Positions 523-18,056 are shown, numbered from the stretch's first letter. The stretch: 64,000 nt of DNA from a virus (IMGVR_UViG_3300021387_000299:113820-177819); one strand, 5' to 3'. Notes: generated by a model not told the origin, from the letters alone. Made by a program: numbers and translations.

Positions 523-631
523 GTTCTACTCCTTTCTCTCTTCCATAAAAAAAATACCCCATGAAGAAAATATCCTCATAGGGTATAAAATAACTATTCT
601 TCTTTATTCTTTTAAAAAGTAAATAGATTGA

Positions 632-1156
632 TTAACCAAGTTTGGTCACAACTTCATTTACAAGTTCAACACCTTTACTTTGATTAAGTTCGTTAACAAA
701 TTTTTGAACGTCTAAATCTAAATTCTTATAATCCTCATTTATAGCATCTAAAATTCCATATGCAGAATCTTGATATTTATAAAATTGTTCGATAGTTTCT
801 TTTAATAAAGTATATAGATATCCAATATCGCTTTCTGGAATCGCAGTAAATACAGCATGATAAAAACCAGAAGAGATAAAATCGTCATAAAGTTTTCCAG
901 CGTTTTCTTTCTGTTTATCAGTAATTGATAAATTAGTATAATATTCAATTACTTTTAAATGAAAATACATATCTACTTTTCCTGGATTATAAAAACGATT
1001 TTCATCCGCTGCTAAATTTAAAACTTCAGTAATCAAATCTAATTTCTTTTCAATAGATAAATAAGGTTTAACTTCAATTTCCTGTTCATTTCAAATTAAT
1101 GTTTTAACAGGATCTTTTGGAGTTAACTTTAATTTGTTCAATGTTGGTTTTGCCAT
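632..1156 (-). CDS. Putative tail assembly chaperone (TGA 1091-1093 = Trp)
   Basis: ATG at 1156 with AGGAG RBS; MAKPTLNKLKLTPKDPVKTLI[W]NEQEIEVKPYL joins ORF 632-1036 in frame; lies just before the tape measure gene. Confidence 0.65.
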
Positions 1157-1224: not shown

Positions 1225-2763
1225 TTATTTTAACGCATTAGAAGAAATTGTTATTAATAGATTCATCGTTTTCATTTTATTAGTAAGTCTTGTAATTCGC
1301 CTTGCAGAAGACGCCCTATTTCTTTTAGATTCTGGAGCAACCCAATCATTTTCTGTTCAAATACCATCAGGATATTTGGAAAAGTTCATTAACTCTATAT
1401 TTCCAATTATTTTATCTAATAATTCAGATAAATAATAAACCTTGTATCCCTCATTAGTACTATTATCATTAACTATAAATAAATCAACTTTTTCACTATA
1501 TCCTTTATCTGTAAACACTCCACCAGAAATAGCTTTTACAAAAGCTGTGATTTTCATAGCTTCATGCATTTTATTTACATCATTCAAACTAAAATTTGTA
1601 TCAGTATGAGTTCCAACAATATTTAAAAAATGATTTATAAAATACGAGTAATCTTGAACTAAACCTAATAAATTTTTACCTTCTAATAATTTCAAGTGAT
1701 CAAACCCTGTACTTAAATTATAATTTTTTATAGAAGTATTTATATTTTCAAAACCTTTAAAATATAAAGTTGCATCTACTTTATCTTCAGTTAAGTTAAC
1801 GGTAAACTCATCTTGCTGCAATTGCTTAAGAGAAAGTCTGTTACCAGAATCATCAAACATTTTATCTTCATCTCTATATAAAGCATAATAACTCAATAAA
1901 GATCCTTTTACTCCTTTTCGACTTTTGTGTGGCTTATTTTTTGGATCATTTAAAAACTTTAAAAGTTGATTTTTAGAAACCCTTCCTTTATGATTTAAGA
2001 CATAATTACTTGCTTTTGCCACAACTTCACCAAATTCGCCCTGAGCCTTTCCCGCAGAGGTTAATTTAAGAGCCCTTATTAATTCACTTAATTCATCATC
2101 AAATCTTTGATATTTTTCATTTTTTCTAAGCCAACGACGCCATATTACTTTAGTATTTTTAGTCTTTTTTGTATATGCTGCAACATCATCTTTAAAGTTC
2201 GTATATTTTAAATCTAAATCTTCTAATTTTTTATAAAGATCTGCGGAAATTTTATCTTTTGCTATTTCTTTTCTAAATGCAACCAATGCCTTATATCTAT
2301 CTTCTATTGATTGAATAGAACGTTTATCTGCTATTTGATAATTACGAAATTTTTTTACCTTTTCTAAAAGCTCTTTTTCTTTTTCTGTTAAACTTGCTAC
2401 ATCCACACCAGAAGAAACTGATAACGTATTATTGTCTAAATATATATGACTACCGAACATATTTTCCATATATTCTGAAAGCGCTGCCCGCATTGTTTCA
2501 ACATCCTTTTCATTCAATTCACCCTTTTCTATATTTGTTTTTATTGCAGGATTAAAAAATAAATTTAACATTTTTTCAAGTTTTTCTTTATTTCCAGCCA
2601 AATCATTTTCAAATTTTTTCCTCGCCATTTCTTGTTTCATCATTGCTATTTGAGTATCGTATATTTCTTGCGGACGAGGAGGGGTTTCTTTTTTATATAA
2701 ATTAGTTGAATAATTAAGATAGTGTACTCTTGTTGCATGAATATAATCTCCAATACCCGCCAT
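1225..2763 (-). CDS. Hypothetical tail-region protein (TGA 1357-1359 = Trp)
   Basis: 468-aa ORF extends a further 44 codons to TAA at 1225 if TGA is read through. Confidence 0.65.
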
Positions 2764-2801
2764 ACTTTATCACCTCTTAAATAAACAAAAAAAGGGAAAG
2801 A

Positions 2802-2987
2802 CTATTCGTCTTCCCCTTCATTTTCTTCAACCATAATTTTTAAACCAGCTTCAGGCTTAATAATAGTAATTTTAGCTTTAGATAAATCTAAAACAGGTTC
2901 TTTATTTTCGCTCTGTTCTGGTTTGATAATCTTAATAGTAGCCGGTTTAGAGACTACTCTTTTTCTTTTACTAGAGCGAGAAAACAT
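2802..2987 (-). CDS. Small hypothetical protein
   Basis: AGGAGG RBS; internal repeat IKIIKPE/ITIIKPE. Confidence 0.6.
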   Translation of the reverse strand: MFSRSSKRKRVVSKPATIKIIKPEQSENKEPVLDLSKAKITIIKPEAGLKIMVEENEGEDE

Positions 2988-3001: not shown

Positions 3002-4126
3002 CTAGTCATCATGGTTATCAGATGACATGCTTACTAATTCATCTGAATATGTTTCACCATCATGCCATGTACGACCACGATGTAGGTCATTATTAGCATC
3101 AGAAGCTGTTGTAGCACTCTCAATAATCTGAATAACAGCAAATACTTTATGACTCTTATCGAATCTTGTGTAGTCTGGGAATGCATCCATTGTAAATGTA
3201 AATGTTGATGGATCACCAGTAGCAGCCATAGTAAATGTAAATGCTGACTGAATCTTACAGTTAGGAATGATAAATTCAGCTGGATGGTCTACACCATTTG
3301 TATCTCTCCAAAGTGTTGAACCTTCAAGATAATATGTACCAGCGAATTTTTCAGCATCAATTTCAATCTGTTTAGCGCCAGAACGAACTGGTGTATAGTA
3401 ATCAATTAAAACACCATTACCAATACCAGCATCAACAGCAAGATTTGTCTTACCATCATCACCTTTACCGACGCCAATTTCATACATATGATTCATATCA
3501 GTATCATGGCAATTTAATTCTTTTCCAAAATTACATTCATGACTTTCAACAACCATCTTATATGAACCATCTTCTTGAGGTTCAATTTTTGCATAAGTCT
3601 TTGAAGCTGCATCAAATGCAGAACCTGTCTGCTGATTAACAATATAAGGTTCAGAAATAACTTCACCATCTTTTGTGATCATAATGCAAGCGTAATTTTC
3701 ATTTTCAACTGCGCCATTAGCTGTTGGAACAGGTAAGAAAGGTTCTTTATCTACGAAAACAGTTAAAGTCTTTCCATCTTCACTAACAGTATATTCATCT
3801 GTTGTTTCAACAATATGCTGATAAATAGGCTTATCTTCAGAAGCTTCAATTAAACCAGCACCAGTTAAAACTGATAAACTTTCTGGAGAAATCAATGCAT
3901 CTTCCATAGTGAAAGTAACTGTACGTTCACCTTCCCACGCCATTAAACGAGCATTACCTTTACCACCCTGCGCATAAACAGTTGTAGAAGCACCCTCTAA
4001 TGTTGAAGTAGTCAGTGTGTCGAAATATAATACTGGTTCATTCTTATAGAAACGCTTGTTTCCCAAATTCATTGTACCCTTGGCTCTAAGTACAACGTCA
4101 ACTACGTCACGAACACCATATTTCAT
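3002..4126 (-). CDS. Major tail (tube) protein
   Basis: Strong RBS, biased codon use, tube-like motifs (GGKGNARLMAWEGERTVTFTMEDAL; FTFTMAATGDPSTFTFTMDAF), position in tail module; no in-frame TGA. Confidence 0.75.
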   Translation of the reverse strand: MKYGVRDVVDVVLRAKGTMNLGNKRFYKNEPVLYFDTLTTSTLEGASTTVYAQGGKGNARLMAWEGERTVTFTMEDALISPESLSVLTGAGLIEASEDKPIYQHIVETTDEYTVSEDGKTLTVFVDKEPFLPVPTANGAVENENYACIMITKDGEVISEPYIVNQQTGSAFDAASKTYAKIEPQEDGSYKMVVESHECNFGKELNCHDTDMNHMYEIGVGKGDDGKTNLAVDAGIGNGVLIDYYTPVRSGAKQIEIDAEKFAGTYYLEGSTLWRDTNGVDHPAEFIIPNCKIQSAFTFTMAATGDPSTFTFTMDAFPDYTRFDKSHKVFAVIQIIESATTASDANNDLHRGRTWHDGETYSDELVSMSSDNHDD

Positions 4127-4144
4127 GGGCTTTTTCCTCCTTCT

Positions 4145-4867
4145 TTAATCTTTATGGATATTTCTCATTCAATCTTCAGGCTTGCCATCAGCTTTTGCCC
4201 CAGCAAGTCTTGATCGAATATCAAGGTCTCAATTAGTATAAAGACCAAATCTTTCTAATGAATCTAATACTTGATATACAGTATAGTCCACTAAAGTTGT
4301 AATTGGTATTTTTAATCCAATAGATAAAGCTGATAAATATCGTGCATAAACACTTCCAATATCATCACCTTTTAATTTAGCAATTCGTTCTCTACCTTTT
4401 TTAATTTTTTCAGCAATTTTTCGAGCTTGCTCATTTACTGGATTAAAATCATCCTCTTTTTTCTTTAAACAAAAAACTTGCCGCAAGATAGTCTGGAAAT
4501 ATTCAAAATTTCCTTCATCTATTATAATGTTTGTGCCATTATAATTTAACAATAATGCCCTTGGAGTAAAGGTTATTTTTCCATTTGGTACAACTAAAGA
4601 TAAGGCTTCTTTTACTGCTTCTTTAGTTTCTTTAGCATCTTTCTCTGACATTATTGTCATAAATATTTGAAAATTTGAAGTATTAGATAAATCTGATCCG
4701 CCCTGCTCAAATTGTTCTTTATCTATACAAAATACTTGTATTCCTGTTAAAAATTGTTTTTCTCCAACCATTGATATTTCTTTAATTGTCGGTTGATGAA
4801 TAATTAATTGACATTCTGGAATGGGAATATCCACTCCAGTAAATAGTGCAAGATCAATATCTTTCAT
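4145..4867 (-). CDS. Tail-associated protein (TGA 4229-4231 and 4169-4171 = Trp)
   Basis: Read-through gives LYTN[W]DLDIRSRLAGAKADGKPED[W]MRNIHKD then TAA beside the next RBS. Confidence 0.75.
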
Positions 4868-5463
4868 TATTCTTTAAACTGCTTTTGTTTAAATAATTCA
4901 TTAAAATCATCAACCATCTTCTGCTGATCATCTGGATTAGGAGTATCTTTCTTATCCTCTCCACCATGAACTGCTTGATACATTAAAGTTAATCCTGCAA
5001 ATTCATCATTAAGAATAATCTGACTTGCGCCTAAAAAATGTAATTCTCCAATCCCTGTTAAATGCTCATTATCAAACATTGAATCAATTTCCGCAGCAAT
5101 ACGATATGGACGCAATTGGAAATCCTTTAACTGCCATTGATCGAAATGACATATAATATCAAAGGTAATAATATTATCTCTAAATTGTGGATTCGCACTT
5201 GGCGTAAAATTATCCATAGATATAATTACATAAGCCAACACACTTCCATCTACATAAATTTTTGGAATAATTTTTATTTGCTTTCCAATCATATTTGCAC
5301 GTTGTTCTTCAGTCAATGCTGGTCGATCCAACGCATCTCTATCCGTGTAATATAAAATTTTACATAAATTCTTATTCTTCATCATTCATTCAGTTATTAA
5401 AGCTAAATCTTTGTCGACCGACATAAATGATGAATGCGGAATCGTATATTTCTTAATTATCAT
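4867..5463 (-). CDS. Putative tail terminator/completion protein (TGA 5386-5388 = Trp)
   Basis: ATG 5463 with GGAG RBS, in frame with ORF 4867-5385; synteny. Confidence 0.65.
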
Positions 5464-5481
5464 AATACTCCATTTTCTCCT

Positions 5482-6474
5482 TTAAAATAAAGATTCTGCA
5501 ACAATAGTTTTTTCAGCATCGCCGCATTTTAATACAAACTGACCATGATAACTTGATTGTCAGCTAATAACACATTTACGACCGTCTGCTTTCATTTGAA
5601 CAGGAACTTTCTTTCCTATAATCTTCCATTGTGCAAGATCTTTTCCTCTATAGTAATAAGTATATTCAATTCTTGGTTTAATAAAAGTATCTCCTTTAAT
5701 TAAATCATCGAGTGTAGAATCTGCGTTTGGATCAATCGGATCCATTACAAGACCATCTACCAAATAATTATTAACGTCATCTTTAGTCTCATTTGCATAA
5801 TATTCTACAGCTACAACTTGTAAAATTCCAGGCATACTAATACTATCAGTTGCTTCAACTCTTCAGCAAATATTCTTATCAGCCTCATCAATACCCTTTA
5901 AATAAAACTTTGCATAACGTCTAAAATATTTTAATGCTTCGGGTGTTTTAGTCATAAGAATATCTAAAGAGTGATTCGGTTCATCTACACTTATACCATT
6001 CTTTTGAATAAAATTAATCTTAGTTTCTACTGGACCTCTTACCGCAAGATATTGGGTAAACTTCTCTTTATCTTCATTTAACCAAGATACAGTATAATTA
6101 CAACGTCTAATTTCTGCTCTAAAATAAGCAAGTTCAGTTAAATCTTGTAAATAAATTATTCATTTAGTTCCAGTATTTAATCAATCAAAAATGTCTCCCG
6201 GTTTATAGCGATACTCATATCCAACAGAGAGAACTTTATCATCATAATTTTGTTTTGTCTTATCCGGATTAATTAACGCTGGTGCTTGTTCTTGATCTAC
6301 CGCATCAGTATGTTTAATTTTTGCCGCTTGATAAGAGTATTTTGTTGCATGATCTAATGTTCATCTTTTATCGCGAATCATTCGATCTTGTTGCGGTTTT
6401 CCGCCATGCCAATTTATTCTATTTGCCATTAAATTTATTCCAGAAAATTGAGATCTATCAGTACTATATGGCAT
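5482..6474 (-). CDS. Putative head-closure/neck protein with five TGA=Trp codons (6361, 6181, 6160, 5863, 5560)
   Basis: One 331-codon frame fills a gap in the ORF track; contexts IFD[W]LNTGTK[W]IIYLQDLTE and IC[W]RVEATDSISMPG. Confidence 0.8.
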
Positions 6475-6769
6475 TTAACGTCCCCCTTAATAAAGAAATT
6501 GATTCAAATACTGTCTTTCTATAAATACTAAATTCCAAATCTTCAGATACTCGCAAACCTTCAAGTTTACTTAGTAAAATTAAGAATTCATCATTTGAAG
6601 CAAATATCTCTGATAATCCCCTAATTTCAATAAGGACAGTATTTAATTGTTCCAATCAATTTTCTCCATTTTCTCTCATTGGAATTAATTTTCAAAGTTG
6701 ATTTGTCAATCTATTTATATCAGATTCAAAACTAGACCTTGAAATATTAATGCCTAACTTCGTAGTCAC
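6464..6769 (-). CDS. Hypothetical head-tail region protein (TGA 6692 and 6656 = Trp)
   Basis: GTG start at 6769; NRLTNQL[W]KLIPMRENGEN[W]LEQLNTV. Confidence 0.7.
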
Positions 6770-7343
6770 CAAAGATTCCATTTCTTAGCACATCCCAATT
6801 TGACTCAATATAGCCATCGCTATTTATTCGTCTACGCTTATAAAGGCGTTGCATATGGAATGATTGTCTCTGACATTCTGCTAATAAATTTAATAATTTG
6901 GCAAGATGATTGGCTTGGGAGGTCATTTTAAAATCAGACCCACTATATTTCATGCGGGTATTTTCAATAGATGTAACTTGGCGTTGAAGCCATCCGCACA
7001 TCATTAATAATGCAAGAATATTAATCTCTTCACTCGTTAAATCTACATTAAAATGCGAGCGTTCAATATATACATCAGGAATTCCCTCATCTTCCTCTTC
7101 ATCTGGAGTGTTTCAAACAACTCCAATAACAAAATCCCCTTCTTCAACCTTATCTTCTCGAACAATAAGAGTTTCAATAGAAAAGTCGTCTAAAATTTTA
7201 CGAGGGAATTCAAATCCAGGAATTGCATCAATTAAAAGGGACCTTAAGTCCCTCATTGTGTCTTCTGGAGTTAACTCCATGTACATATCATCTGTGATTT
7301 TACCAAGAAAGCGATTATATATATCTGTGAACTGAGTTCCCAT
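6747..7343 (-). CDS. Putative head-tail adaptor (TGA 7113-7115 = Trp)
   Basis: ORFs 7113-7352 and 6747-7004 are one frame separated by a single TGA. Confidence 0.7.
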
Positions 7344-7367
7344 AATATACACTCCTTTCTTATTTAA

Positions 7368-7973
7368 TTATTTCTTAATAATCTTAGGTTTATTTGCGGC
7401 GACTGCTTCTGCTGCAACCCCTCCAGCTGATCTACGTGTAGTTGTCTGAACTCTACGAGTCTTTGGAGCCTCTGCCGCAGGTGCTTCACCGTCATCATTA
7501 GCTCTATTTTCTCTATCATGAGCAATTGCTGCATCAACATCAAATCCTGTCATTTCCTTAAGAGCCTGTCTCTTAGAAAAATCATTTAAAGGAATCTGGA
7601 CGCTTAAATCTTTAATCATATCTTTAACACCATCTGGCGCAAAATCAAGAGCATCCTTAAATTCGTTTAAAGTACCCTCTCTAATAAGCTTAGCGACATT
7701 ATCAGCATTCATATAATACTCAGGTTCTCTATGAATATTTAAATCATCTAAAACCTGTTCGTCTTTAACCAAGAGGTGGTTTCTGATTAAGTCAAGTCCG
7801 CCAGCTGTATATGATAAAGCTTCAATTTCCTCTTTTGGAACTCTGATAGCCTGTCTAGGAGCTAATTCTCTGCGAATATGTCTATCGGGAATTTGATAAA
7901 CAATTTTTCCAGCTGTTCTATTTTCAACTGTTACTAAATCTGCCATATTGTAATAATCTCCTTTTTCTCTCAC
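7368..7973 (-). CDS. Virion-module protein of unknown function (start probably MADLVTV)
   Basis: Long ORF, GGAG RBS, between capsid and neck genes. Confidence 0.7.
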   Translation of the reverse strand: MREKGDYYNMADLVTVENRTAGKIVYQIPDRHIRRELAPRQAIRVPKEEIEALSYTAGGLDLIRNHLLVKDEQVLDDLNIHREPEYYMNADNVAKLIREGTLNEFKDALDFAPDGVKDMIKDLSVQIPLNDFSKRQALKEMTGFDVDAAIAHDRENRANDDGEAPAAEAPKTRRVQTTTRRSAGGVAAEAVAANKPKIIKK

Positions 7974-8030
7974 TTAATGAAAATAAGGGGAGAGGGGATT
8001 TACCCCTACTCCCCTTTAACTCTTAAATAT

Positions 8031-8441
8031 TTAGTTTTCTTTAAATGTTACTGTTAATGTAACACTTTCGCCCTTAGCACCAATTGTAATTGTTGCTGGT
8101 GTTGTGGCAATTGTTTCTGCCTTAGTCCAGAATACAATATGTCCTGCTCCAAGGCCTAATCCAGCTGCTTCCTCTACGTCAGCATCTGTTAATTCAGCAC
8201 CATTCCATGTAGCACCAACGATTGTCTCAAGACCTGTATTAATATCTAATCCAATCCACTTATGCTCTCCTTGAGCCGCATTAGAAGATGGGAATGTAAC
8301 TAAGTCTTCAAGTTTACCTTTGATGACAATGGAAGTACCACTTTGTTCAACCTCAACGGCCCCATTATTGACTACCATGCTATCATAGCTGGCGTCCCAT
8401 GATGGAAGAGTGGCCAACTTACTAACCGTTGTTGTTACTAC
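8031..8441 (-). CDS. Ig-like/decoration domain, probably fused to the major capsid protein by -1 frameshift
   Basis: No ATG or SD; frame is open back to the capsid stop (CAG GGG TAG) in the -1 frame; beta-rich, ends VTLTVTF. Confidence 0.6.
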   Translation of the reverse strand, partial: VVTTTVSKLATLPSWDASYDSMVVNNGAVEVEQSGTSIVIKGKLEDLVTFPSSNAAQGEHKWIGLDINTGLETIVGATWNGAELTDADVEEAAGLGLGAGHIVFWTKAETIATTPATITIGAKGESVTLTVTFKEN

Positions 8442-9589
8442 CCCTGCTGGCCGTTACCGCCTTGATTGTCGCCTGCACCTTCGCTACCGCTTTGGAAATC
8501 AGATGCATTGTCAACAACGACAACGTTCTTAACTGTATCAGCAAGCTGGAATGAACCTTCCTTAGATAATGAAGTATCCTTATAAACGCACATTGCATTG
8601 TTCATCATGCAAACTACGCCGACCTTCTTATATACCTGGATCTCACGGCTCCAGTCACGATTAGCTCTTTCGTCAACAAGTGTATCGCCTTCGAAAGCAA
8701 CCTTAACTGGCTTCATATCTGTGCCTGATGGGATAATCCAGCAGAATGAAGGATCAATAACCTTTTCCTTACCTTCAATAATGTCCTTATAAGCGTTAGG
8801 AAGAATGACAACATTCTTATCTCTATATCCGCTTAAACGACCTGTTCTGTAAAGTTCATCCTTCATAGCTTCTGTGTATCTCCAAGCTTCTTGAGGAATC
8901 ATCTTAACAGCAAATTCGTTAGTGCAGTAAATTGTTACATTACCATATGATTCAGCAAGGCGAACAAGTTCGTCAAATGAAGCTGCATCAAATCCGTTTG
9001 TAACAACGCGGTTCATTGCAGGAAGCTGGTTAATAGCACCTTCAAGAGCCTTACCAATTTCTTCGTAAACAAGGTCATCCATACCTTCCATTACGATATT
9101 TGTAAGTTCAGCAAAGTCAGCACGACCATCAAGGAATTCCTCAAATCCGATCTGTGCAGCTCCGCCAATTGCACTTGTTGGAACTTCGAAGCTTTCAGAA
9201 CTCTTAGCAAGCTTGAAGACTTCATAGTTACCTGCAAGTCCAACTCTTGTAATGAACTGCTTAGCACGATTAGTGCCATCAATCTTTCTACGGAACATAG
9301 GTCTGTCGCCCTGCGCAAATGTCTTTACTTCTGCGAACTGACCATAGTTCTGAACGACTCTCTTAGGAAGAACATCATTCAATGTTTCTTCAATAATAGA
9401 GAATACTAAATTCTTATTTTCACGATATAACTGGTATGTTCCAGCAATCTCTCTGAACTCATTACGAAGTGTTTCGTTAAGTTCATTATAGCTGAAATCC
9501 TGTCCATTATAGCTATACGCCTTAGGAGCTTTAGGATCAGCTTTAGCTACAGTCTTAGCTAATGCAATAAAATTCTTCTTATCTAACAT
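8438..9589 (-). CDS. Major capsid protein
   Basis: 383 aa, strong codon bias, downstream of protease/scaffold; no in-frame TGA. Confidence 0.85.
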   Translation of the reverse strand: MLDKKNFIALAKTVAKADPKAPKAYSYNGQDFSYNELNETLRNEFREIAGTYQLYRENKNLVFSIIEETLNDVLPKRVVQNYGQFAEVKTFAQGDRPMFRRKIDGTNRAKQFITRVGLAGNYEVFKLAKSSESFEVPTSAIGGAAQIGFEEFLDGRADFAELTNIVMEGMDDLVYEEIGKALEGAINQLPAMNRVVTNGFDAASFDELVRLAESYGNVTIYCTNEFAVKMIPQEAWRYTEAMKDELYRTGRLSGYRDKNVVILPNAYKDIIEGKEKVIDPSFCWIIPSGTDMKPVKVAFEGDTLVDERANRDWSREIQVYKKVGVVCMMNNAMCVYKDTSLSKEGSFQLADTVKNVVVVDNASDFQSGSEGAGDNQGGNGQQG

Positions 9590-9608
9590 TTCCTTACTCC
9601 TTTCTTAA

Positions 9609-10334
9609 TTATTTAACGCGCATAACTTTTACGCCAGGCTGCATATCAGGCATTGTGTAAACCTTAACAACCTGCATTGTTGGGTGAAGAGCGTCTGCGC
9701 CTTCGCCCGGTGCAAGATAACCATCAGCGCCAGGTGTAAGCATATCGCCAACCTTTAGGCTACCTGGTTCAGCAGCAATTGTATTTGTTGTCCAAATATC
9801 GCCAATATTAATCTTGAAAAGACGAGGAACCATTCTTGTTCCCTGTGGCATTAACTTATGCTTCTTGTAGTTTTCAACTACATGGAATGGATCATCTGTA
9901 GAATCTACTTCATAAGGAGAAGCTGGCTTTGTAACACGTTCAACATTGTCATTGCCATCTCCATCTTTAGCTCCGTAGAAACGAGCCTGCCATTCTGTTA
10001 AAGGCTGTGTTCCATCAATTGGACTATAAACACGAGCAACATAATCTTCTTTCTTCATAGCAAAATCGCAGTCCTGTTCCCAGTCACGATAAAGCTTGAT
10101 TTCATTAAAGACCATCATCCATTCGCCTTTGCCTTCAAAGTCTACTGCTCCGCCATCATCAGCTGCATAGTTATATGTAGCAAACTGTCCATTCTCAAGA
10201 ATGTCAATATCTGCTGCTGCAGGTAACTGAGCATAGATCTGAGCAGTCTTCTGGGCAGATAGATGGTTTGGTTCAACCTGACCATAACCACGAGCGACAT
10301 ATGTGGCCTTTTCACTTAATCTTTCTCTAGCCAT
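9609..10334 (-). CDS. Capsid-associated (decoration/cement-like) protein
   Basis: Between scaffold and major capsid; strong RBS; all four Trp are TGG. Confidence 0.65.
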   Translation of the reverse strand: MARERLSEKATYVARGYGQVEPNHLSAQKTAQIYAQLPAAADIDILENGQFATYNYAADDGGAVDFEGKGEWMMVFNEIKLYRDWEQDCDFAMKKEDYVARVYSPIDGTQPLTEWQARFYGAKDGDGNDNVERVTKPASPYEVDSTDDPFHVVENYKKHKLMPQGTRMVPRLFKINIGDIWTTNTIAAEPGSLKVGDMLTPGADGYLAPGEGADALHPTMQVVKVYTMPDMQPGVKVMRVK

Positions 10335-10351: not shown

Positions 10352-11632
10352 TTATTCCATCTCTCTTTTCGTAGCCATAGCAGCTTTGATCCAAGCCGGT
10401 ATCATATCATCTTCAATTCCCTGTTCATCTAAACTGAAAACTGTGTTACCATTTTGCTCTTCATCTTTTTCTTCATCAAGATCAAAACTAACCTTGTTAC
10501 GAACACAAATTACAGAAAGCTTCGCTTCGATATCATCAATACTGTAGTTGTCAATATTCTTAACTACATCCTGCTTATCTTCATCAGATAGCATGTAGAA
10601 ACTATCAATCATTGCCTGCTTTTCTTTACGATCGGCCGCATTCTTAAATTCTACAAGTTTATCATAATCAGCTTTCATATTGTTGAACTTAGTTTCTAAC
10701 TCTTCATAGTCAGCCTTTAGTTCTATATATTCTTGAATATCATCAAGATTATATTTAACGCTTTCGTCCTCAGAATTTTCTTCAGGTTGCTCGTCTTCCT
10801 GAACTTCTTCTTCGGTTTCAGCAGGAGCTTCTTCTGCTTCTTCTTCTGGAGTTTCTTCAACTTCAGGTTCTGCAGGAGCTTCTTCTTCTGGTTTTTCTTC
10901 TTCGTTATCTAAAACTTCTTCTTCCATTTCTGGTGTCTTTACTTCTTCCACAGAATCTGTCCCTCCTTTTATTTCCATCTCTTTAACTTCTTTCATCATA
11001 GATAAAATCTTTTCCTGGAAAGAAGGTTCAAATGAGAATTGCACTCTGGTGATTTGCGCACCCTCGAAGCAAGGTTCAACATCCTCACCAAGAATACAAA
11101 GTTTAGAGATTATTGCTTCATTTATAATGAAAAAGCTCAAATTTTCATTATCATTTTCTGACCAAAAACCTTTTAAAGTAGATTCATCTAATTCCATAGA
11201 TTGATTATTACCCTTGGTAATAACTCTTTGAGTTTCTGGATATTGGCCTGTTCATAAATATCCTTCTGTCATCAAATATTCATGTTCAACGCCATCATCA
11301 GAAAATTTTTGAAACCACACCTTTGGATTTAAATCAACAAATCCATAAGGCTGTGTAGTATCTTTAAAGAACCAATCTCCATTGCGAATATCAATGCTTT
11401 GATTATGTGCCTCAAAGTCCTCAGTGTTTTCGTTATAATATCCCACAATTGGACAGCCCGGTAAAGTTTTTGCCATATCTGTGGCAACAGCTTTAGTAAT
11501 AACGCTACCATTACGATTAGGGCTATCTCCTACATAACATACCTTAATTTGGCATTTTGAAATAAGAGGATTTAATGTTGGTGTAACATTGATAAGCTCA
11601 ATAGGAGAATCTACTGCTATACTATTATGCAT
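10352..11632 (-). CDS. Prohead protease/scaffold (TGA 11252-11254 = Trp)
   Basis: Fused frame EYLMTEGYL[W]TGQYPE..NNQSMEL..LCILGEDVEPCFEGA, then acidic coiled-coil scaffold. Confidence 0.85.
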
Positions 11633-11645
11633 TATCTAACTCCTC

Positions 11646-13289
11646 CTATTTCATACTCTCTCTATTTGCAATTGTTTTGTCGGATAATTGATCATCATCC
11701 TTTTTAGGACGACCTGCTTGTTTTGATTCTCCACCTACCGCAGATCCTCCTCCTGTAGAAGTTTGCGAATTACCACTATTTGTTTTATTTTTTCTGCCCA
11801 AATTTTGAATATCTTCACTACCAATAGTAGATGACATCATAGGCGGAATCATAATTTCACTTAATCCTAAAATATCATTTTCGAAATAAGCGGTGCTCAT
11901 GATTGTATTTTGAGAGTGTCCAAGAGCAATCTGCGCAAACATCTTACCATAACCAATTTGCATTTGTTCTTTATACATTTTTGATAATTCTTTATAATTA
12001 TATTGTGTAGTATCTAATATGTAAAATCTAAAATTATATTTCTTCTTATTCTTGACTTTTCTCTGTACTATTGTATCAAATAAAATCTCAAATTGCAACT
12101 TTAAGTCCCTCATGACGCCCTCATCTTGCAAAATCGAATTGGTCTGTGCAAGATTTCCATCCGAGTTAAATATATTTTTAGATACGCCGGCCGCATTATA
12201 TACAGTACGTTCAACTCTCTCTAAATCGTCATTATCAACATTTCTTGCATCCGATAAATCAATAGAATCAATATCCGCGAATGTTGTAATAATATCTGTT
12301 CCAACAGAATGTTGTAACATCGCAACAGCATTATTATGAATATCTCTTGCTTCATCAACATCGAAAATTAAATCACCATTTTTATCTATTGGAAGTTTCT
12401 GCACAATAATTTTTAACAGATCTTGCATCTGTTTGCGGCGATCAAGATCCTGCGCGGCATCAAGATCAAGTAATGCTGGAATTACGTTAAAGAATAATGG
12501 TAGATCTCCAGCTCCACTTAAACTAAATTTAACTGCATATCCAGGATCTAATAAGTATCATGTGCCAATATCTCCTTGGAAATCTGGTTGCAATCTTCTT
12601 TCTTTATATAGCATATATCCTTTTTGGAAATCTTTAGGGAACATTTTAAGAACTCGCATTCTATAATTAATGTCCTTAAATTTTTCATCAAAATATGCCA
12701 TATTAAATTCAATAGCAGGAAGATTATTTATATAATATCTGCAACGGCAATATTCTGGAGGTAACTCTTGGAATAACACTCCATTCGTTCCTTCAATAAT
12801 ATAGCCATAGCATACTCCATATTTAAGAACCTTTAACGCAATATCACCGCATAATTTCTTAATATGAGTATTATCTAAATAATCTAAATTTTTAAAAAAT
12901 TCATTAGTAATTTTTAAACAGTCTTTTTCACTGTCCAAAACAGATTCATCATAGATTGTTGGAACGGTATACCAGTCCCAACGATACATTGTTGCATAGT
13001 AATTAACAAGTCTTTGATAAATACCGTCTATTCTATAGAAATAATCTGAAATCATTCTAATTGAATGATAATCTCTGTCTATAATGGCACGCATTACAGC
13101 ACGTTTATCAATACATCTTCGACCATCTATTTTTTTATAAAATCCTAAATCTATAATAGCATCTTCAAGAGTTTTTATACCTACTTTAATTTTCCCATAG
13201 TCAGCGGCGCCATTCATATCAAAGCCTTTATCTCTAATGGCCTCTTGTCTATCCTTGTTTTCCAAAAGCTCCACCTCCTTAGCTTCCAT
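11646..13289 (-). CDS. Portal protein (TGA 12558-12560 = Trp)
   Basis: Two ORFs in one frame joined by GDIGT[W]YLLDP; about 547 codons; between terminase and protease. Confidence 0.8.
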
Positions 13290-13638
13290 ATGCTTTATTA
13301 ATTATGTAATCGTAACTAATAAGATTTTCGTCAGTATATGGAATTTCTATTAATTTAATATCATGTAATTGACAAAATCTACGTTTTTTCGCATCATTAA
13401 ATTGCTGCTGATAAAATCCTTTTTTTCCACCAAATTTACTACTTGGTTCATAATGTTGTCTGCCTTGATATTCAATTAAAAAATCTATATTACCGTCATC
13501 ATCAAAGACCGCAAAATCAAAACGAAGAGGTCTACCATTTGAACTATTTAATCCTTCAAATGATAATTCCATCTTAAAATTTAATCCCGCTTCTTTTAAA
13601 ATTTCTTCTATTTTAATTTCTCCTCTACTTGCTCTCAT
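13279..13638 (-). CDS. PD-(D/E)XK / Vsr-like endonuclease
   Basis: Motifs LRFDFAV, LIEYQGRQHY, D..KRRFC..HDIKLIEIPY. Confidence 0.75.
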   Translation of the reverse strand: MRASRGEIKIEEILKEAGLNFKMELSFEGLNSSNGRPLRFDFAVFDDDGNIDFLIEYQGRQHYEPSSKFGGKKGFYQQQFNDAKKRRFCQLHDIKLIEIPYTDENLISYDYIINKAYGS

Positions 13639-13648
13639 ATTAATTCTC

Positions 13649-15433
13649 CTATCCTATATGTGAACTAAATCGTCATTCAGCAGCATTAAATTTCTTTTTC
13701 TTTTTTCGTTTACTGTCTTCAACTTGTTTTATATAATATAATCCATATTCAAATGCTGAAAATTTATCTTTCTTAATTCCACGATTAGCTTGTTTTAAAA
13801 TAATATTAACACCTTCATTTTCTTCACGAAGATTTAACATCTCTTCTTTTAATATAGAAGTTAATGTATATGGTTTTAAGTAATCTGCCCTTTCTTCTGG
13901 AGTCATTTGTTTTCCTTTAGATGTTCCTAATAATTTTGTTTTAGCAATTCTTTCATCAATTAAAAATTTAATTCGTCCAGAAATAAGTTGCGTTTGAACA
14001 TTAGAATGTGCTTCAGTATTGATAGGTGCATTTGCTTTCATTAAATACATTGCATCTTGTTCTGTGCGAGGTGTTCTAAATTTTTTATATTGTTGTTCAA
14101 TATCTGGGGTAGTTCCACCAATAACGCCAAAATCTGGATATTCATCTCCAGTAATAGGGTCAACTTGTGATTTGACCATAAAGTCTATTAAACCACTACC
14201 AAGACCATTAGCGTCAATTACAATACGTCTAGCTTTATATTTATAGAATAGACGCTTTGCTCAAATTGCTTGGTCTTCAAAATGCATATCACTTAGAATA
14301 TACAAATTAACCAAAGATTTAATAGATACATCGCCATAGTTTTGCGGAATTACTTTAAATACAGTGATTACACTATCGCATCCATCTTTACCAGAGCTTT
14401 GGCGCGCAACGTCCATTGATAAGATGTAATAACTTTGTGAGCTTGATCGACCGGAATATTCATATTCTGGTTTTTGTAATGCTCTATTTCTATCAAAAGC
14501 TTCGCCATTAAAGAAAGCATCCGCAACAGTTCCACTTCATTTAGATTCATATTCACGCTCAAATGATGCCTCATTAAACGTACCATCTCGTTTAAGGTCT
14601 TGAATAAAGTTTTTATCCAATAGTCCGGTCAATACTGGAATACGGAATGTACCACCCATAATTATAGCTTTTTCAGGCTCGGTAATCATCCATACTAAGA
14701 ACTGAATTAGTTTATCATATGCAAAAGTATTTTTATATCCAGCAGTAGTAACAAAAATTTGAGATTTATTTAGAGTCTCTTCTGGATGCATTGTTCCATC
14801 CATACAAAGTCTTGAAACGTTCATGGTAGGAATAATAACTTCAGAAAGAATCTGTCCATCAACGCCTACGCACTCTTCTACAAGTCCGCCATGACGACGT
14901 TTACCTCTTGATTTTTCACTTGCCGCAATATTATCAAAGAATGATCCATTTTTAAACATATAACAGACATAGTCCTTACCTTCTCTTGTTCGACCAGGAC
15001 TTCTATCTAATTCACGCTCAAAAGCTGGAACTAAAGTGCAAATTTCATTAACTTTTTCTTTAACAATACCCGCTGCCTGTTCTTTACCTCCAGAAGTAAC
15101 AAACAACTTAGATCTGGGATAAAGCACGCAACGGCACATTAATACTAATACTGACAAGAATGATTTTGAATACGCACGGGGGAATACCATGTATACATAT
15201 TTATATCGCATCGCCGCACGCAAGAATACTCTTTGATAAAAAAAGAATTTTAAGCCATTTTCGGGAATTTCTCCATCTCGTCCTGTTTGCATAAAATCTA
15301 CAAACATATCGGGATATTCTCTCCAAAAGGCAATGTATTGTCTTAATGCTGGTTTAATAGCTTCAATTCTTTCTTCTGATAATCCAATCTTTCTTCTATC
15401 TTGAGAAAGATTTAATAAATCTTGTAGAGCCAT
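13649..15433 (-). CDS. terL: Terminase large subunit (TGA 14537, 14261, 13673 = Trp)
   Basis: Walker-A-like FPRAYSKSF, RGKRRHGGLVEE, VTTAG coupling motif, FEREYESK[W], nuclease motifs LSMDVAR, IDANGLG, KDKFSA in one frame. Confidence 0.9.
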
Positions 15434-15435
15434 AA

Positions 15436-16686
15436 TTATGACCTCTTTTCTCCAGATAAGTTTAAGAAAATATCTTCATTTTCTTGTCTTAAAGATTCTT
15501 CAAAATCATTAAATTCTTCAAATTCTCCATCAGTAATATATTTTAAATCATCACTAAATAAAGCATCTTCAAGAATATCTTCATCACTTGCCGCATCTGC
15601 ATCAGTTTCAGCTTCACGACGTTTATCTTCCTCAATTTGTTTAACCGCACTCTCAATAAGATTACCAATGTTGGTTTCTTCAGTAATCAATGATTTTGTA
15701 TAGCCTTGAAGATCTTGAAGCACTCGATCAACTTTATCTTTTGGTGAATCTATATAATATCTTGGAATAAATCCATCTTTTTCGCACATCATAACTAATT
15801 CAGAAATTGAATCAACAATTTCACCATTTTCTGCTTTATTCTGAGCAGCAGTAAATTTACCACTCTTCATTAAGCTATCATACATTTTTTGCATTTTTTG
15901 TGCGCCATCGACATCACCAAGATCAATAAGCTGATCAAGTTTTAGTGAAGTCTTTGCCAATTTTTTTAGAGTGTCTTTATGTCCAGCTGTTTGAATGTCA
16001 TAAGATTCCATAAAATCGTTATAGTATTGCTCTAATTGAACCCATTCCTCTGGTTTATAAGATTTTCCTCATTTAAGTTTTAAATAAGTTACATCTTCAT
16101 CAGTTAAGCCAAGTTCATCCGCAGATTTAGAAGGTTCTTGGGAAAATTCTATTGTCGAAAAGGTATCTGCGCTTTCAGCTTGTTCAGGCTCTTCCGCATA
16201 TACTATTTCTTCAAGACTCTTTTCCTCTTCTGGAATTATATTTTTTTGTTCTTCAATAGCTAAGGTAATTTCTTGAATATCTTTACCTTGACGCTCCATG
16301 CTTTCGCGCAAACGCTTTTCTGCAAGTTCTTGTAAAAATTCAGTATCTTTCCAACGATATTGTTTATATTGGTTTAACTTCATTTTAGATAGATATCTAC
16401 CTAAAATAGTCATACCAGTTACTTTACGTTTATCTTGTCCATATTTTGCTAAAAGTTTATTTCACTCTTCTGGAATATATGGAACATCTACTTCTTTTAG
16501 AATCGGCGTAAAAGTAGAAGCATCTCAATTATCGACATGCATTGTCAAACATTTTTTACAAATAGGAATAGTTCCGCCATCTGGATATTTTTCTAAATTA
16601 TTTGATTGATAAAATTCTCCACGTTTTAGTGTTCTATGACATTTTTCACAATATATTAAATCATTTTTATTTGCTGCTGTCGCCAT
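15436..16686 (-). CDS. Probable terminase small subunit with N-terminal Zn-finger (TGA 16525, 16462, 16069 = Trp)
   Basis: CEKC..CKKC; HVDN[W]D, VPYIPEE[W]NKL, YLKLK[W]GKSY; directly upstream of terL. Confidence 0.7.
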
Positions 16687-16728
16687 AAACTACCTCCTTT
16701 ATTTATTTTAATATCCACCTGCCGCAAA

Positions 16729-17781
16729 TTATTGTTTTTTGCCCTTTTTATTGCGGCATTCTTTACAAATACTATAGTAACCATCTTTGCTAGTTTTATT
16801 TTTACTAAAATATTTATTATGAGCTAATTTAATTTGACCGCATCGAGAACATTTCTTATATGTTCCTTTTTCCTCGTTTAAATAATATCAATTTAAAAAA
16901 TCATCCTCTGCCGCTGAAGCTATCAGATTGGGAATCTTTTTTCGCCATAAAGATGAAATATATTCAAGGCTATGACGAATGCCAAATTCCTCTTGAATAA
17001 TATCTCGTATTTCCGCATTTTGTAAGCCATCTATTTTGCATTCAACGATTCGATAATATAAAGGATGATCTTTAAGTGCCGCCGCACTTATTTTATCGAA
17101 CTCCTCCATGAGGTATCACGTATCACTAAAGAAATCACCCCATGAACGCTCTTTTAATTTTGAGTAATTACATAAAATGATAGAGCAGATATTCGGATCC
17201 ATTAGCGACACTCCAGAAGGAACAGGATATCCATCCTCATCCCAAGAGATCTCTTCTGGTAATGTTGTGTAATGTTCTGAATGAACTAGATGCATGGCCT
17301 GTACGGGAGGTTTATATGCTTGTTTTATTACATATTGATCTTTGCGGGTTTCTATTAAAGCCTTCTTGGCGATATATGTATCTCGTCCTTCCGACTGCCG
17401 CACGATCTTATCCCATGCTGCGATTGCGCCATCTGTTTGTGCTAATTCTGGTATATCTTCTCTATCTTTTTTAGTTATTGAAATCTTAGGTTGCATTATT
17501 ATATGTTTATTATCTGTAGTTATATTATAGACGCCATCTTCGCCATTTTCAAATTGGGAAACCAAGCCTTCATAAGAGGTTTCTCTCTTATTCACTGTAG
17601 CCAAACGGTTTTCGGTAAGAATTTTTTTCTCCTTTTTCTCTTCTTTCTCCATACAAAAGACTAGATAGTCAGCTAGAATTTCAAGATAACTAGGGTCAGG
17701 ATTAGGATTTTCCTCTAGTATTTTGTTAACTACTTCTAATCTTTCTTGGGGAGAGTCTAAACTATAATCTAATTTAGTCAC
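16729..17781 (-). CDS. HTH plus C-terminal Zn-finger protein, candidate late-transcription regulator (TGA 17116, 16888 = Trp)
   Basis: Sigma-region-4-like GLQNAEIRDIIQEEFGIRHSLEYISSLW; CSRC..CKEC appears only after read-through. Confidence 0.65.
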
Positions 17782-17816: not shown

Positions 17817-17846
17817 ATTATACCAGAAATTTTCTATAGTTGTCAA
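17817..17846 (-). promoter_or_regulatory. Sigma-A-type promoter upstream of the morphogenesis operon
   Basis: TTGACA-N18-TATAAT with extended -10 TG on the minus strand. Confidence 0.65.
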
Positions 17847-18056
17847 ATAAATAATTTTTTGATATAATATTTTATATAAAGAAAGGGATAATATTATGGA
17901 TAATTTTAATGAAATCATGGCACTTATTTGTATGGTTACTGCTATGATTATGCTATGTTGTAAACAAGCACAATATGCAACTTATTTTATAGCATTGGCA
18001 GTATATTATAAAGTAGATTCACTAAAACAGAAGCAATAAAAGGAGAAAATTTATTT

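Follow-up and report, generated by a model that had tools for sequence, protein, structure and literature searches.

Genes for the capsid and other presumably abundant virion proteins avoid the recoded TGA codon in a phage of the phAss-1 group

Results

The late genes of the virus record IMGVR_UViG_3300021387_000299 read TGA as a tryptophan codon, and four of them, encoding the major capsid protein and three proteins presumed to be made in bulk with it, contain no TGA at all. The stretch analyzed, called the window below, has 64,000 nucleotides (113820-177819) and is the terminal 64 kb of this single 177,819-bp record, the completeness of which is 95% (CheckV). The phage is a 178-kb uncultured siphovirus-like member of the phAss-1 group, and more distant relatives of its capsid protein occur in Enterococcus EF1-like and SPbeta-like siphoviruses. 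The first 17.8 kb of the window are the head-to-tail portion of the late module, on the minus strand. PHROG matches in the late module include a portal, a terminase-like protein, an HNH endonuclease, a sigma-factor-like protein and 'virion structural proteins'.

The recoding of TGA is real, because open reading frames (ORFs) read with genetic code 4 fill the late module, TGA and TGG alternate at tryptophan (Trp) columns of alignments, the genome encodes both tRNA(tca) and tRNA-Trp(cca), and neither a release-factor gene nor a tryptophanyl-tRNA synthetase gene was found in the phage genome. Between 60 and 132 kb of the genome, the ORF cover rises from 0.19-0.84 to 0.89-1.00 once TGA is taken as a sense codon, and the code-4 reading restores portal, TerL-like and tape-measure-sized ORFs. 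From 24 to 54 kb, where the long ORFs are of replication type, the two codes leave the reading frames equally open, and the early and replication genes (24-57 kb) are essentially without TGA. Twenty-eight alignment columns are wholly Trp if TGA encodes Trp, with TGA in some relatives standing opposite TGG in others. The genome (GC content 34%) carries 29 tRNA genes, among them tRNA-Trp(cca) and the tRNA(tca) at genome position c58412-58506, which ARAGORN labels SeC. This phage-encoded tRNA(UCA) presumably reads TGA as Trp in the late genes. The host presumably uses the standard code, as indicated indirectly by the replication genes without TGA and by sister phages that are TAG-recoded or standard-code.

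TGA and TGG codons were counted in each code-4 ORF of the window (Table 1). An earlier note on this DNA had claimed that the genes for the capsid, a tail-tube-like protein, the 241-amino-acid (241-aa) protein encoded directly upstream of the capsid and an extension of the capsid use TGG for every Trp, and that nearly all of their low-copy neighbors carry TGA. Both statements hold: the four genes together have 0 TGA and 14 TGG, while the late neighbors in the window have 23 of each (Fisher p=4.1e-4 against the four genes). The remaining late module, with 192 TGA and 104 TGG, also differs from the four genes (Fisher p=8.1e-7), and eight late proteins, mostly without assigned function, have a load of 14-22 TGAs each.

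Table 1. Genes and other features in the late-module end of the window, with the TGA and TGG codons of each code-4 ORF
Feature	Position in window	Strand	TGA/TGG
Putative major tail (tube) protein, 374 aa	3002-4126	-	0/3
Major capsid protein, 383 aa	8438-9589	-	0/3
Head-module protein, 241 aa, directly upstream of capsid gene	9609-10334	-	0/4
-1-frame ORF just after capsid gene, 128 aa	8031-8417	-	0/4
Sigma-factor-like protein	16729-17781	-	2/4
416-aa protein	15436-16686	-	3/2
TerL-like protein	13649-15433	-	3/2
HNH endonuclease	13279-13638	-	no Trp codon, uninformative
Portal	11646-13289	-	1/2
426-aa head protein	10352-11632	-	1/4
201-aa gene between capsid block and neck genes	7368-7973	-	no Trp codon, uninformative
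Neck/connector-region gene	6747-7352	-	1/2
Neck/connector-region gene	6464-6781	-	2/0
Neck/connector-region gene	5482-6474	-	5/3
Neck/connector-region gene	4867-5463	-	1/1
Neck/connector-region gene	4145-4867	-	2/0
Small gene	2802-2987	-	no Trp codon, uninformative
Late gene	1225-2763	-	1/3
174-aa gene preceding the giant putative tape measure	632-1156	-	1/0
Putative tape measure, 2800 aa	ends at 522	-	22/6
Terminator-like hairpin, 12-bp stem and T run	2791-2819	-	
Terminator-like hairpin	554-586	-	
Extended sigma-70 promoter	17817-17846	-	
Divergent promoter	17840-17868	+	

To assign the products of the TGA-free genes we compared predicted structures and sequence profiles. An AlphaFold model of the capsid protein, built from an 18-sequence alignment (predicted local distance difference test, pLDDT, 67), gave 332 Foldseek matches in the PDB at E<=1e-3; the top ones listed are all HK97-fold capsid or encapsulin shell proteins with probability 1.00, and by this predicted structure the product is an HK97-fold major capsid protein. 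With a codon-bias score of 0.216, its gene ranks first in the late module. The 374-aa protein matches PHROG 2729, a 'virion structural protein', and its low-confidence model (pLDDT 57) has among its best folds the siphovirus tail-tube proteins of SPR, YSD1, Chi and JBD30, the matches being weak (Z 3.5-4.3; Foldseek probability 0.35-0.72, E>=1.3e-3). The gene stands between the neck genes, which precede it, and the giant putative tape measure, which follows, a position that fits a tube, and we regard its product as a putative tail tube. PDB profile searches from the alignments of the capsid and tail-tube-like proteins returned nothing at E<=1, nor did a profile search of the PDB find a match to the 241-aa protein (E<=1), and no Pfam family reached the cut-off for any of the TGA-free genes. 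The 241-aa gene, with a codon-bias score of 0.142, has PHROG matches that are all function-less. A weak Phage_cement lead came from the Atlas feature search, where it occurs in 15-19% of the members of nearby clusters; Pfam gave no confirmation of it. The position of the gene is typical of scaffold or decoration genes, and a decoration/cement or scaffold role is a lead only. The structural comparisons uphold the earlier label of the capsid gene and agree weakly with that of the tail tube, so that the functional labels are partly verified.

Two strong terminator-like hairpins, each a match to the consensus only, lie downstream of the tail-tube-like gene and between the 174-aa gene and the giant putative tape measure; they would fit raised transcript levels for the genes upstream of them. 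The five neck/connector-region genes have only PHROG matches that are virion structural or function-less.

The fourth TGA-free frame becomes open some 12 nt ahead of the capsid stop codon and has no identified Shine-Dalgarno site. In 12/12 relatives with an ORF at this place, it is in the -1 frame relative to the capsid gene, and GGGAAAT or GGGAAAC stands just before the capsid stop at 8/12 loci, which represent 3 dereplicated lineages. GGGG replaces the heptamer in the window and at two other loci (the junctions noted are those of L016, L026, L028, L030-L033, L036 and L078). The junction in the window (8417-8460) reads CAG GGG TAG, so that the slippery site, G GGG TAG, is non-canonical. Programmed frameshifting is known to produce C-terminal capsid extensions, as in gene 10A/10B of phage T7, and to append Ig-like domains to phage structural proteins. 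The arrangement here resembles that of T7 in the -1-frame ORF after the capsid gene and, in several relatives, the canonical slippery heptamer before the stop; it differs from T7 in the non-canonical site of the window and in that the extension here is a predicted one. The frame probably encodes a C-terminal extension added to a fraction of the capsid subunits by a programmed -1 frameshift.

To examine the avoidance of TGA in relatives, we searched IMG/VR with the capsid protein and obtained 74 loci, whose codes were assigned by coding density: 23 read TGA and 37 read TAG as sense, and 14 appeared standard, although 3 of these 14 (L019, L080, L081) are short contigs of the TGA clade. Orthologs of 19 window genes were assigned by BLASTP, their recoded and synonymous codons were counted, and dereplication at 95% capsid identity gave 35 clusters. 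In the nine TGA-recoded (code-4) representatives the four genes have 0/87 recoded/synonymous codons and the other late genes 173/179 (Cochran-Mantel-Haenszel p=5e-16), and in the 19 representatives with TAG read as glutamine (code-15) the corresponding counts are 13/622 and 932/1895 (p=3e-56), both being pooled values that overstate independence among representatives of shared ancestry. Tested genome by genome, all 19 TAG-recoded representatives (19/19) gave a one-sided Fisher p<0.01. This comparison by gene class across relatives, which the earlier note had suggested, thus finds the avoidance under both codes, and far from being common in the capsid and tube genes of the TGA-recoded relatives, TGA is missing from them. 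The avoidance is real, statistically robust and recurrent.

The recoded share is graded among ortholog groups. Capsid orthologs have 0/26 recoded/synonymous codons in code-4 and 2/256 in code-15 representatives, those of the 241-aa protein 0/26 and 3/230, and those of the tail-tube-like protein 0/20 and 6/131, giving shares of 0-1% for the capsid and 241-aa proteins and 0-4% for the tube-like protein. The 174-aa, 201-aa and 426-aa genes follow with 12-25%, and the remainder reach 27-76%. Within these ranges, the orthologs of the 201-aa gene are partially depleted of TAG in code-15 representatives (19/117; 14%), the five neck/connector-region genes are 27-76% recoded, and the upstream late genes (10352-17781) are 20-65% recoded.

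At least six changes of code are required on the capsid tree (a single gene tree with midpoint root), and several recoded lineages have therefore either gained the avoidance or retained it. The rare TAGs in the capsid, 241-aa and tube genes are singletons, each private to one lineage; the capsid gene of L037, for example, has one TAG at a column that is Gln in 30/33 sequences. Such private single TAGs point to a quantitative cost, as for weakly deleterious variants, rather than to a strict need for suppressor-free translation. As a separate observation, standard-code and TAG-recoded loci (L038 and L042; L077 inside a TAG clade) form sister taxa at a capsid distance of about 0.13 substitutions per site, and a code switch in the group must therefore have been recent.

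The tree also bears on whether the capsid and tube genes could have been acquired recently from standard-code phages and have not yet accumulated TGA. The GC content at 8-10 kb of the window is 0.41, compared with 0.30-0.36 around it, and the tail genes of the group are clearly mosaic, as such an acquisition would suggest. However, the contigs of the closest capsid relatives (at least 70% identity) are all either TGA-recoded or too short for a code to be assigned, with the gene order conserved, and the avoidance is common to every recoded lineage on the capsid tree. In addition, the third base varies at 64/93 conserved Lys/Glu/Gln columns of the TGA-free genes, whereas 10/10 conserved Trp columns in the same genes are all TGG among TGA-clade relatives; synonymous sites have turned over while the Trp codons remained TGG. 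Recent horizontal acquisition is therefore a very improbable explanation.

It could also be argued that the capsid, 241-aa and tube genes are expressed before the suppressor tRNA is active, and must hence be translatable in the standard code. The early and replication genes (24-57 kb), essentially free of TGA, agree with the model of Borges et al. (bioRxiv 10.1101/2021.08.26.457843), in which the code switches during infection. The TGA-free genes, however, lie inside the late string, flanked by TGA-containing portal and neck genes, and have no strong host-type promoter directly upstream. Assembly of the capsid in tailed phages needs the portal, and the portal gene itself holds TGA. Moreover, the avoidance is graded rather than all-or-none, and the TAG in the L037 capsid and the single TAGs in the 241-aa and tube genes of several relatives show that dependence on the suppressor is tolerated. 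We consider an explanation by timing quite unlikely.

We then asked whether the avoidance of TGA is part of the general codon bias, and to a large extent it is. The capsid, 241-aa and tube-like genes almost lack ATA (share 0.02, compared with 0.26 in other late genes) and GCG (0.03 compared with 0.22), and AGG, CGA, CGG and GGG are near zero. TTC is raised to 0.56 from 0.21, as are ATC, AAC and TAC, and CGT, GCT, GGT, AAG and CAG are favored. TGA is among the most avoided codons of these three genes, beside ATA and CGA. The same codon preferences occur in code-4, code-15 and four standard-code loci. A bias score was trained on four bona fide standard-code loci, with Trp and Gln codons left out. 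In the TGA clade the score and the recoded share per ortholog group are correlated at rho -0.93 (-0.88, p=1.5e-4, without the training genes), in the TAG clades at rho -0.87 (-0.76, p=2.7e-3, without the training genes), and across 32 late genes of the window's genome alone at rho -0.60 (p=2.5e-4). In the TAG clades, these three genes prefer CAG, which is one step from TAG, yet are nearly without TAG, and mutational supply therefore cannot explain the absence.

A local, GC-richer mutational regime favoring TGG without translational selection would be another source of such a bias. The GC content at third codon positions is somewhat raised in the TGA-free genes (0.28 compared with 0.22), and AAG, CAG and TGG are all G-ending. 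On the other hand, the G-ending codons GCG, GGG, GTG, TTG, TCG, CCG, ACG, AGG and CGG are all avoided and the T-ending GCT, GGT and CGT are preferred, so the bias is codon-specific and not directed to GC. This makes local composition an extremely unlikely cause.

The earlier note had further proposed that the number of TGAs may tune the dose of each protein. Under this proposal suppression is incomplete, so that each TGA lowers yield, and selection has adjusted the TGA number of each gene to the dose required of low-copy virion proteins; recoded codons, beyond promoters and ribosome-binding sites, would then encode part of the virion's stoichiometry. The presence of TGA in low-copy genes and its absence from bulk genes agree with this, and a throttle would also give the observed decrease of the recoded share with rising inferred expression. 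The individual codons, however, behave otherwise. Outside the four genes, 28/32 conserved Trp columns in TGA-clade relatives are mixed TGA/TGG, one of the remaining 4/32 being all TGA and three all TGG, and TerL ranges from 0/6 to 5/0 (TGA/TGG) in close relatives. TGA and TGG are positioned alike within genes, with no 5' placement bias (p=0.57). The TGA share is 0.49 in the head-module low-copy genes of relatives and 0.65 in the late module of the genome, at or below the share of A-ending Lys/Glu/Gln codons (0.73-0.78), so there is no enrichment beyond mutation bias. The proteins with 14-22 TGAs, if they are needed, would imply high read-through per codon, and 1-5 TGAs would therefore alter yield far less than the 10- to 400-fold differences in virion copy number. 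Finally, the same genes are codon-optimized in standard-code relatives, which have no throttle. The tuning of dose is thus unsupported, since sites flip and neither a position bias nor an enrichment is seen, and we find instead what the earlier note had set against it together with near-complete read-through, namely a general codon bias (rho about -0.9, present also in standard-code relatives). It is unlikely that the load of recoded stops is an evolved dosage control tied to the level of the suppressor tRNA; an adaptive throttle on stoichiometry is likewise improbable, and is at most a side effect.

Over all late genes of the genome, an in-frame TGA is followed by A in 0.46 and by C in 0.07 of cases, compared with 0.31 and 0.21 after TGG (p=0.0016). 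T follows in-frame TGA in 0.20 of cases and true stops in 0.43, so the enrichment of T seen at true stops is missing. This skew may reflect an effect of context on read-through or on mutation.

Discussion

Classical codon-bias theory holds that translational selection shapes codon choice, and reassigned or ambiguous codons, such as CUG in Candida, are rare in highly expressed genes. We propose, with a probability of roughly 0.7, that the recoded stop is likewise a costly, non-optimal codon that translational selection purges from highly expressed genes. In low-expression late genes, TGG would drift to TGA under AT-biased mutation until TGA reaches roughly half to four fifths of the Trp codons. 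In the genes made in bulk, namely those of the capsid, its upstream partner, the frameshift extension and the tail-tube-like protein, the same selection that shapes other codons would remove TGA. TGA would be costly in that it is read by one phage tRNA in presumed competition with the host release factor 2, which would slow decoding and release some truncated product, and this cost would rise with the number of copies made. Differences in dose would then follow the expression level and not the number of TGAs. In its usage the recoded stop ranks with the least optimal sense codons, and the TGA-free genes are, we infer, the most highly expressed late genes. As in classical codon bias, the choice is graded with inferred expression, and the genes with the highest expression lack the codons that are decoded least efficiently; unlike in the classical case, the disfavored codon is a stop read by a suppressor in a host that presumably uses the standard code, and premature termination is presumed to be part of the cost.

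Several points weigh against this proposal. The description of the genes as high copy draws on the capsid fold, the weak tail-tube match, the gene order and the codon bias itself, and the strength of Shine-Dalgarno sites, as a proxy of expression, fails to separate the two classes of genes. The pooled tests, as said, count related genomes. The avoidance of TGA (0/87) exceeds the preference for G over A in the same genes (AAA 0.40, CAA 0.23), so a force beyond simple wobble preference acts on TGA. Competition with the release factor as the cause of this strong avoidance is assumed; the claim that UGA decoding is inefficient fits the recurrence of avoidance in both TGA- and TAG-recoded lineages, and its release factor 2 part is the part that is assumed. 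Lastly, a tail-region gene of 713 aa, located outside the window, also has little TGA although its bias score is no more than middling, and expression may not be the sole cause.

The closest described system is phAss-1, a 136-kb human-gut phage of the proposed Phassvirus group in which TAG encodes Gln (Babkin et al. 2023, PMC10607447). The capsid proteins are 49.6% identical, and 11 head, neck and tail genes are homologous, 10 of them in the same order in the stretch compared. The phage studied here differs in its code (TGA to Trp rather than TAG to Gln) and in its size (178 kb). It does not belong to the proposed phAss-1 genus, because of its different code and insufficient identity. In the supplementary table of that paper (PMC10607447), the capsid gene, its neighbors and the tube homologue are without suppressor TAG, while the terminase, portal and tape measure have it; the authors do not comment on the TAG-free genes.

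Gut and rumen phages whose late genes are recoded, with TGA read as Trp or TAG as Gln, have been described (bioRxiv 10.1101/2021.08.26.457843; PMC7886860). The present phage is like them in its standard-compatible early genes, TGA-rich late genes, suppressor tRNA, low GC content and code switches over short distances. Borges et al. propose that late and lysis genes are regulated through recoded stops as an extreme form of codon-based control, and their preprint makes no mention of capsid or highly expressed genes (bioRxiv 10.1101/2021.08.26.457843). Borges et al. and Yutin et al. report an early-versus-late split and the preferential recoding of lysis genes, and in the passages searched do not report avoidance by abundant virion proteins or a decrease of recoded codons with rising codon bias. 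Among the papers searched, none was found to say that recoded codons are shunned by abundant virion proteins. In recoded crAss-like phages, the capsid gene can carry recoded stops (Yutin et al., Cook et al.; PMC7886860; PMC11210395), and the avoidance may be lineage-dependent rather than universal.

Avoidance of this kind is comparative, indirect evidence that the suppression of a recoded stop is not free in the infected cell: the recoded codon acts as the poorest of sense codons would, and the higher the expression, the more fully it is purged. The published early-versus-late picture of recoding is thereby refined, in agreement with models that have a reassigned codon spread through weakly expressed genes before others. 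The finding by itself reveals no new regulatory mechanism and is a modest extension of a known kind of pattern. In practice, since the standard code leaves capsid and tube genes unbroken, a wrongly set code does not prevent their detection in recoded phages, and the share of recoded codons could serve as a rough proxy for the expression of late genes.

Three features beside the four genes were also recorded. The 713-aa tail-region protein (genome 78158-80299; L006:5159-7300, minus strand) has 0 TGA and 9 TGG, while its neighbors use TGA for 50-89% of Trp codons, and its orthologs on 7 TGA-clade contigs have 5 TGA and 66 TGG. These orthologs are only 41-69% identical, though the capsids on the same contigs are 88-96% identical. 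Either the gene is mosaic or exchanged and its product baseplate-like, for which there is a weak BppU lead, or this may be a further abundant protein. A gene resembling endolysins and carrying choline-binding repeats, also outside the window (genome 59562-60293; L005:5563-6294, minus strand), has 11 TGG and 1 TGA, the latter at codon 241/243, and is effectively readable in the standard code; being almost free of TGA, it contrasts with the published idea of a preferential recoding of lysis genes. At the head of the late string, just upstream of the sigma-factor-like gene, stands a perfect match to the extended sigma-70 consensus (TTGACA, an 18-nt spacer, TG and TATAAT), with a near-perfect divergent promoter beside it on the opposite strand.

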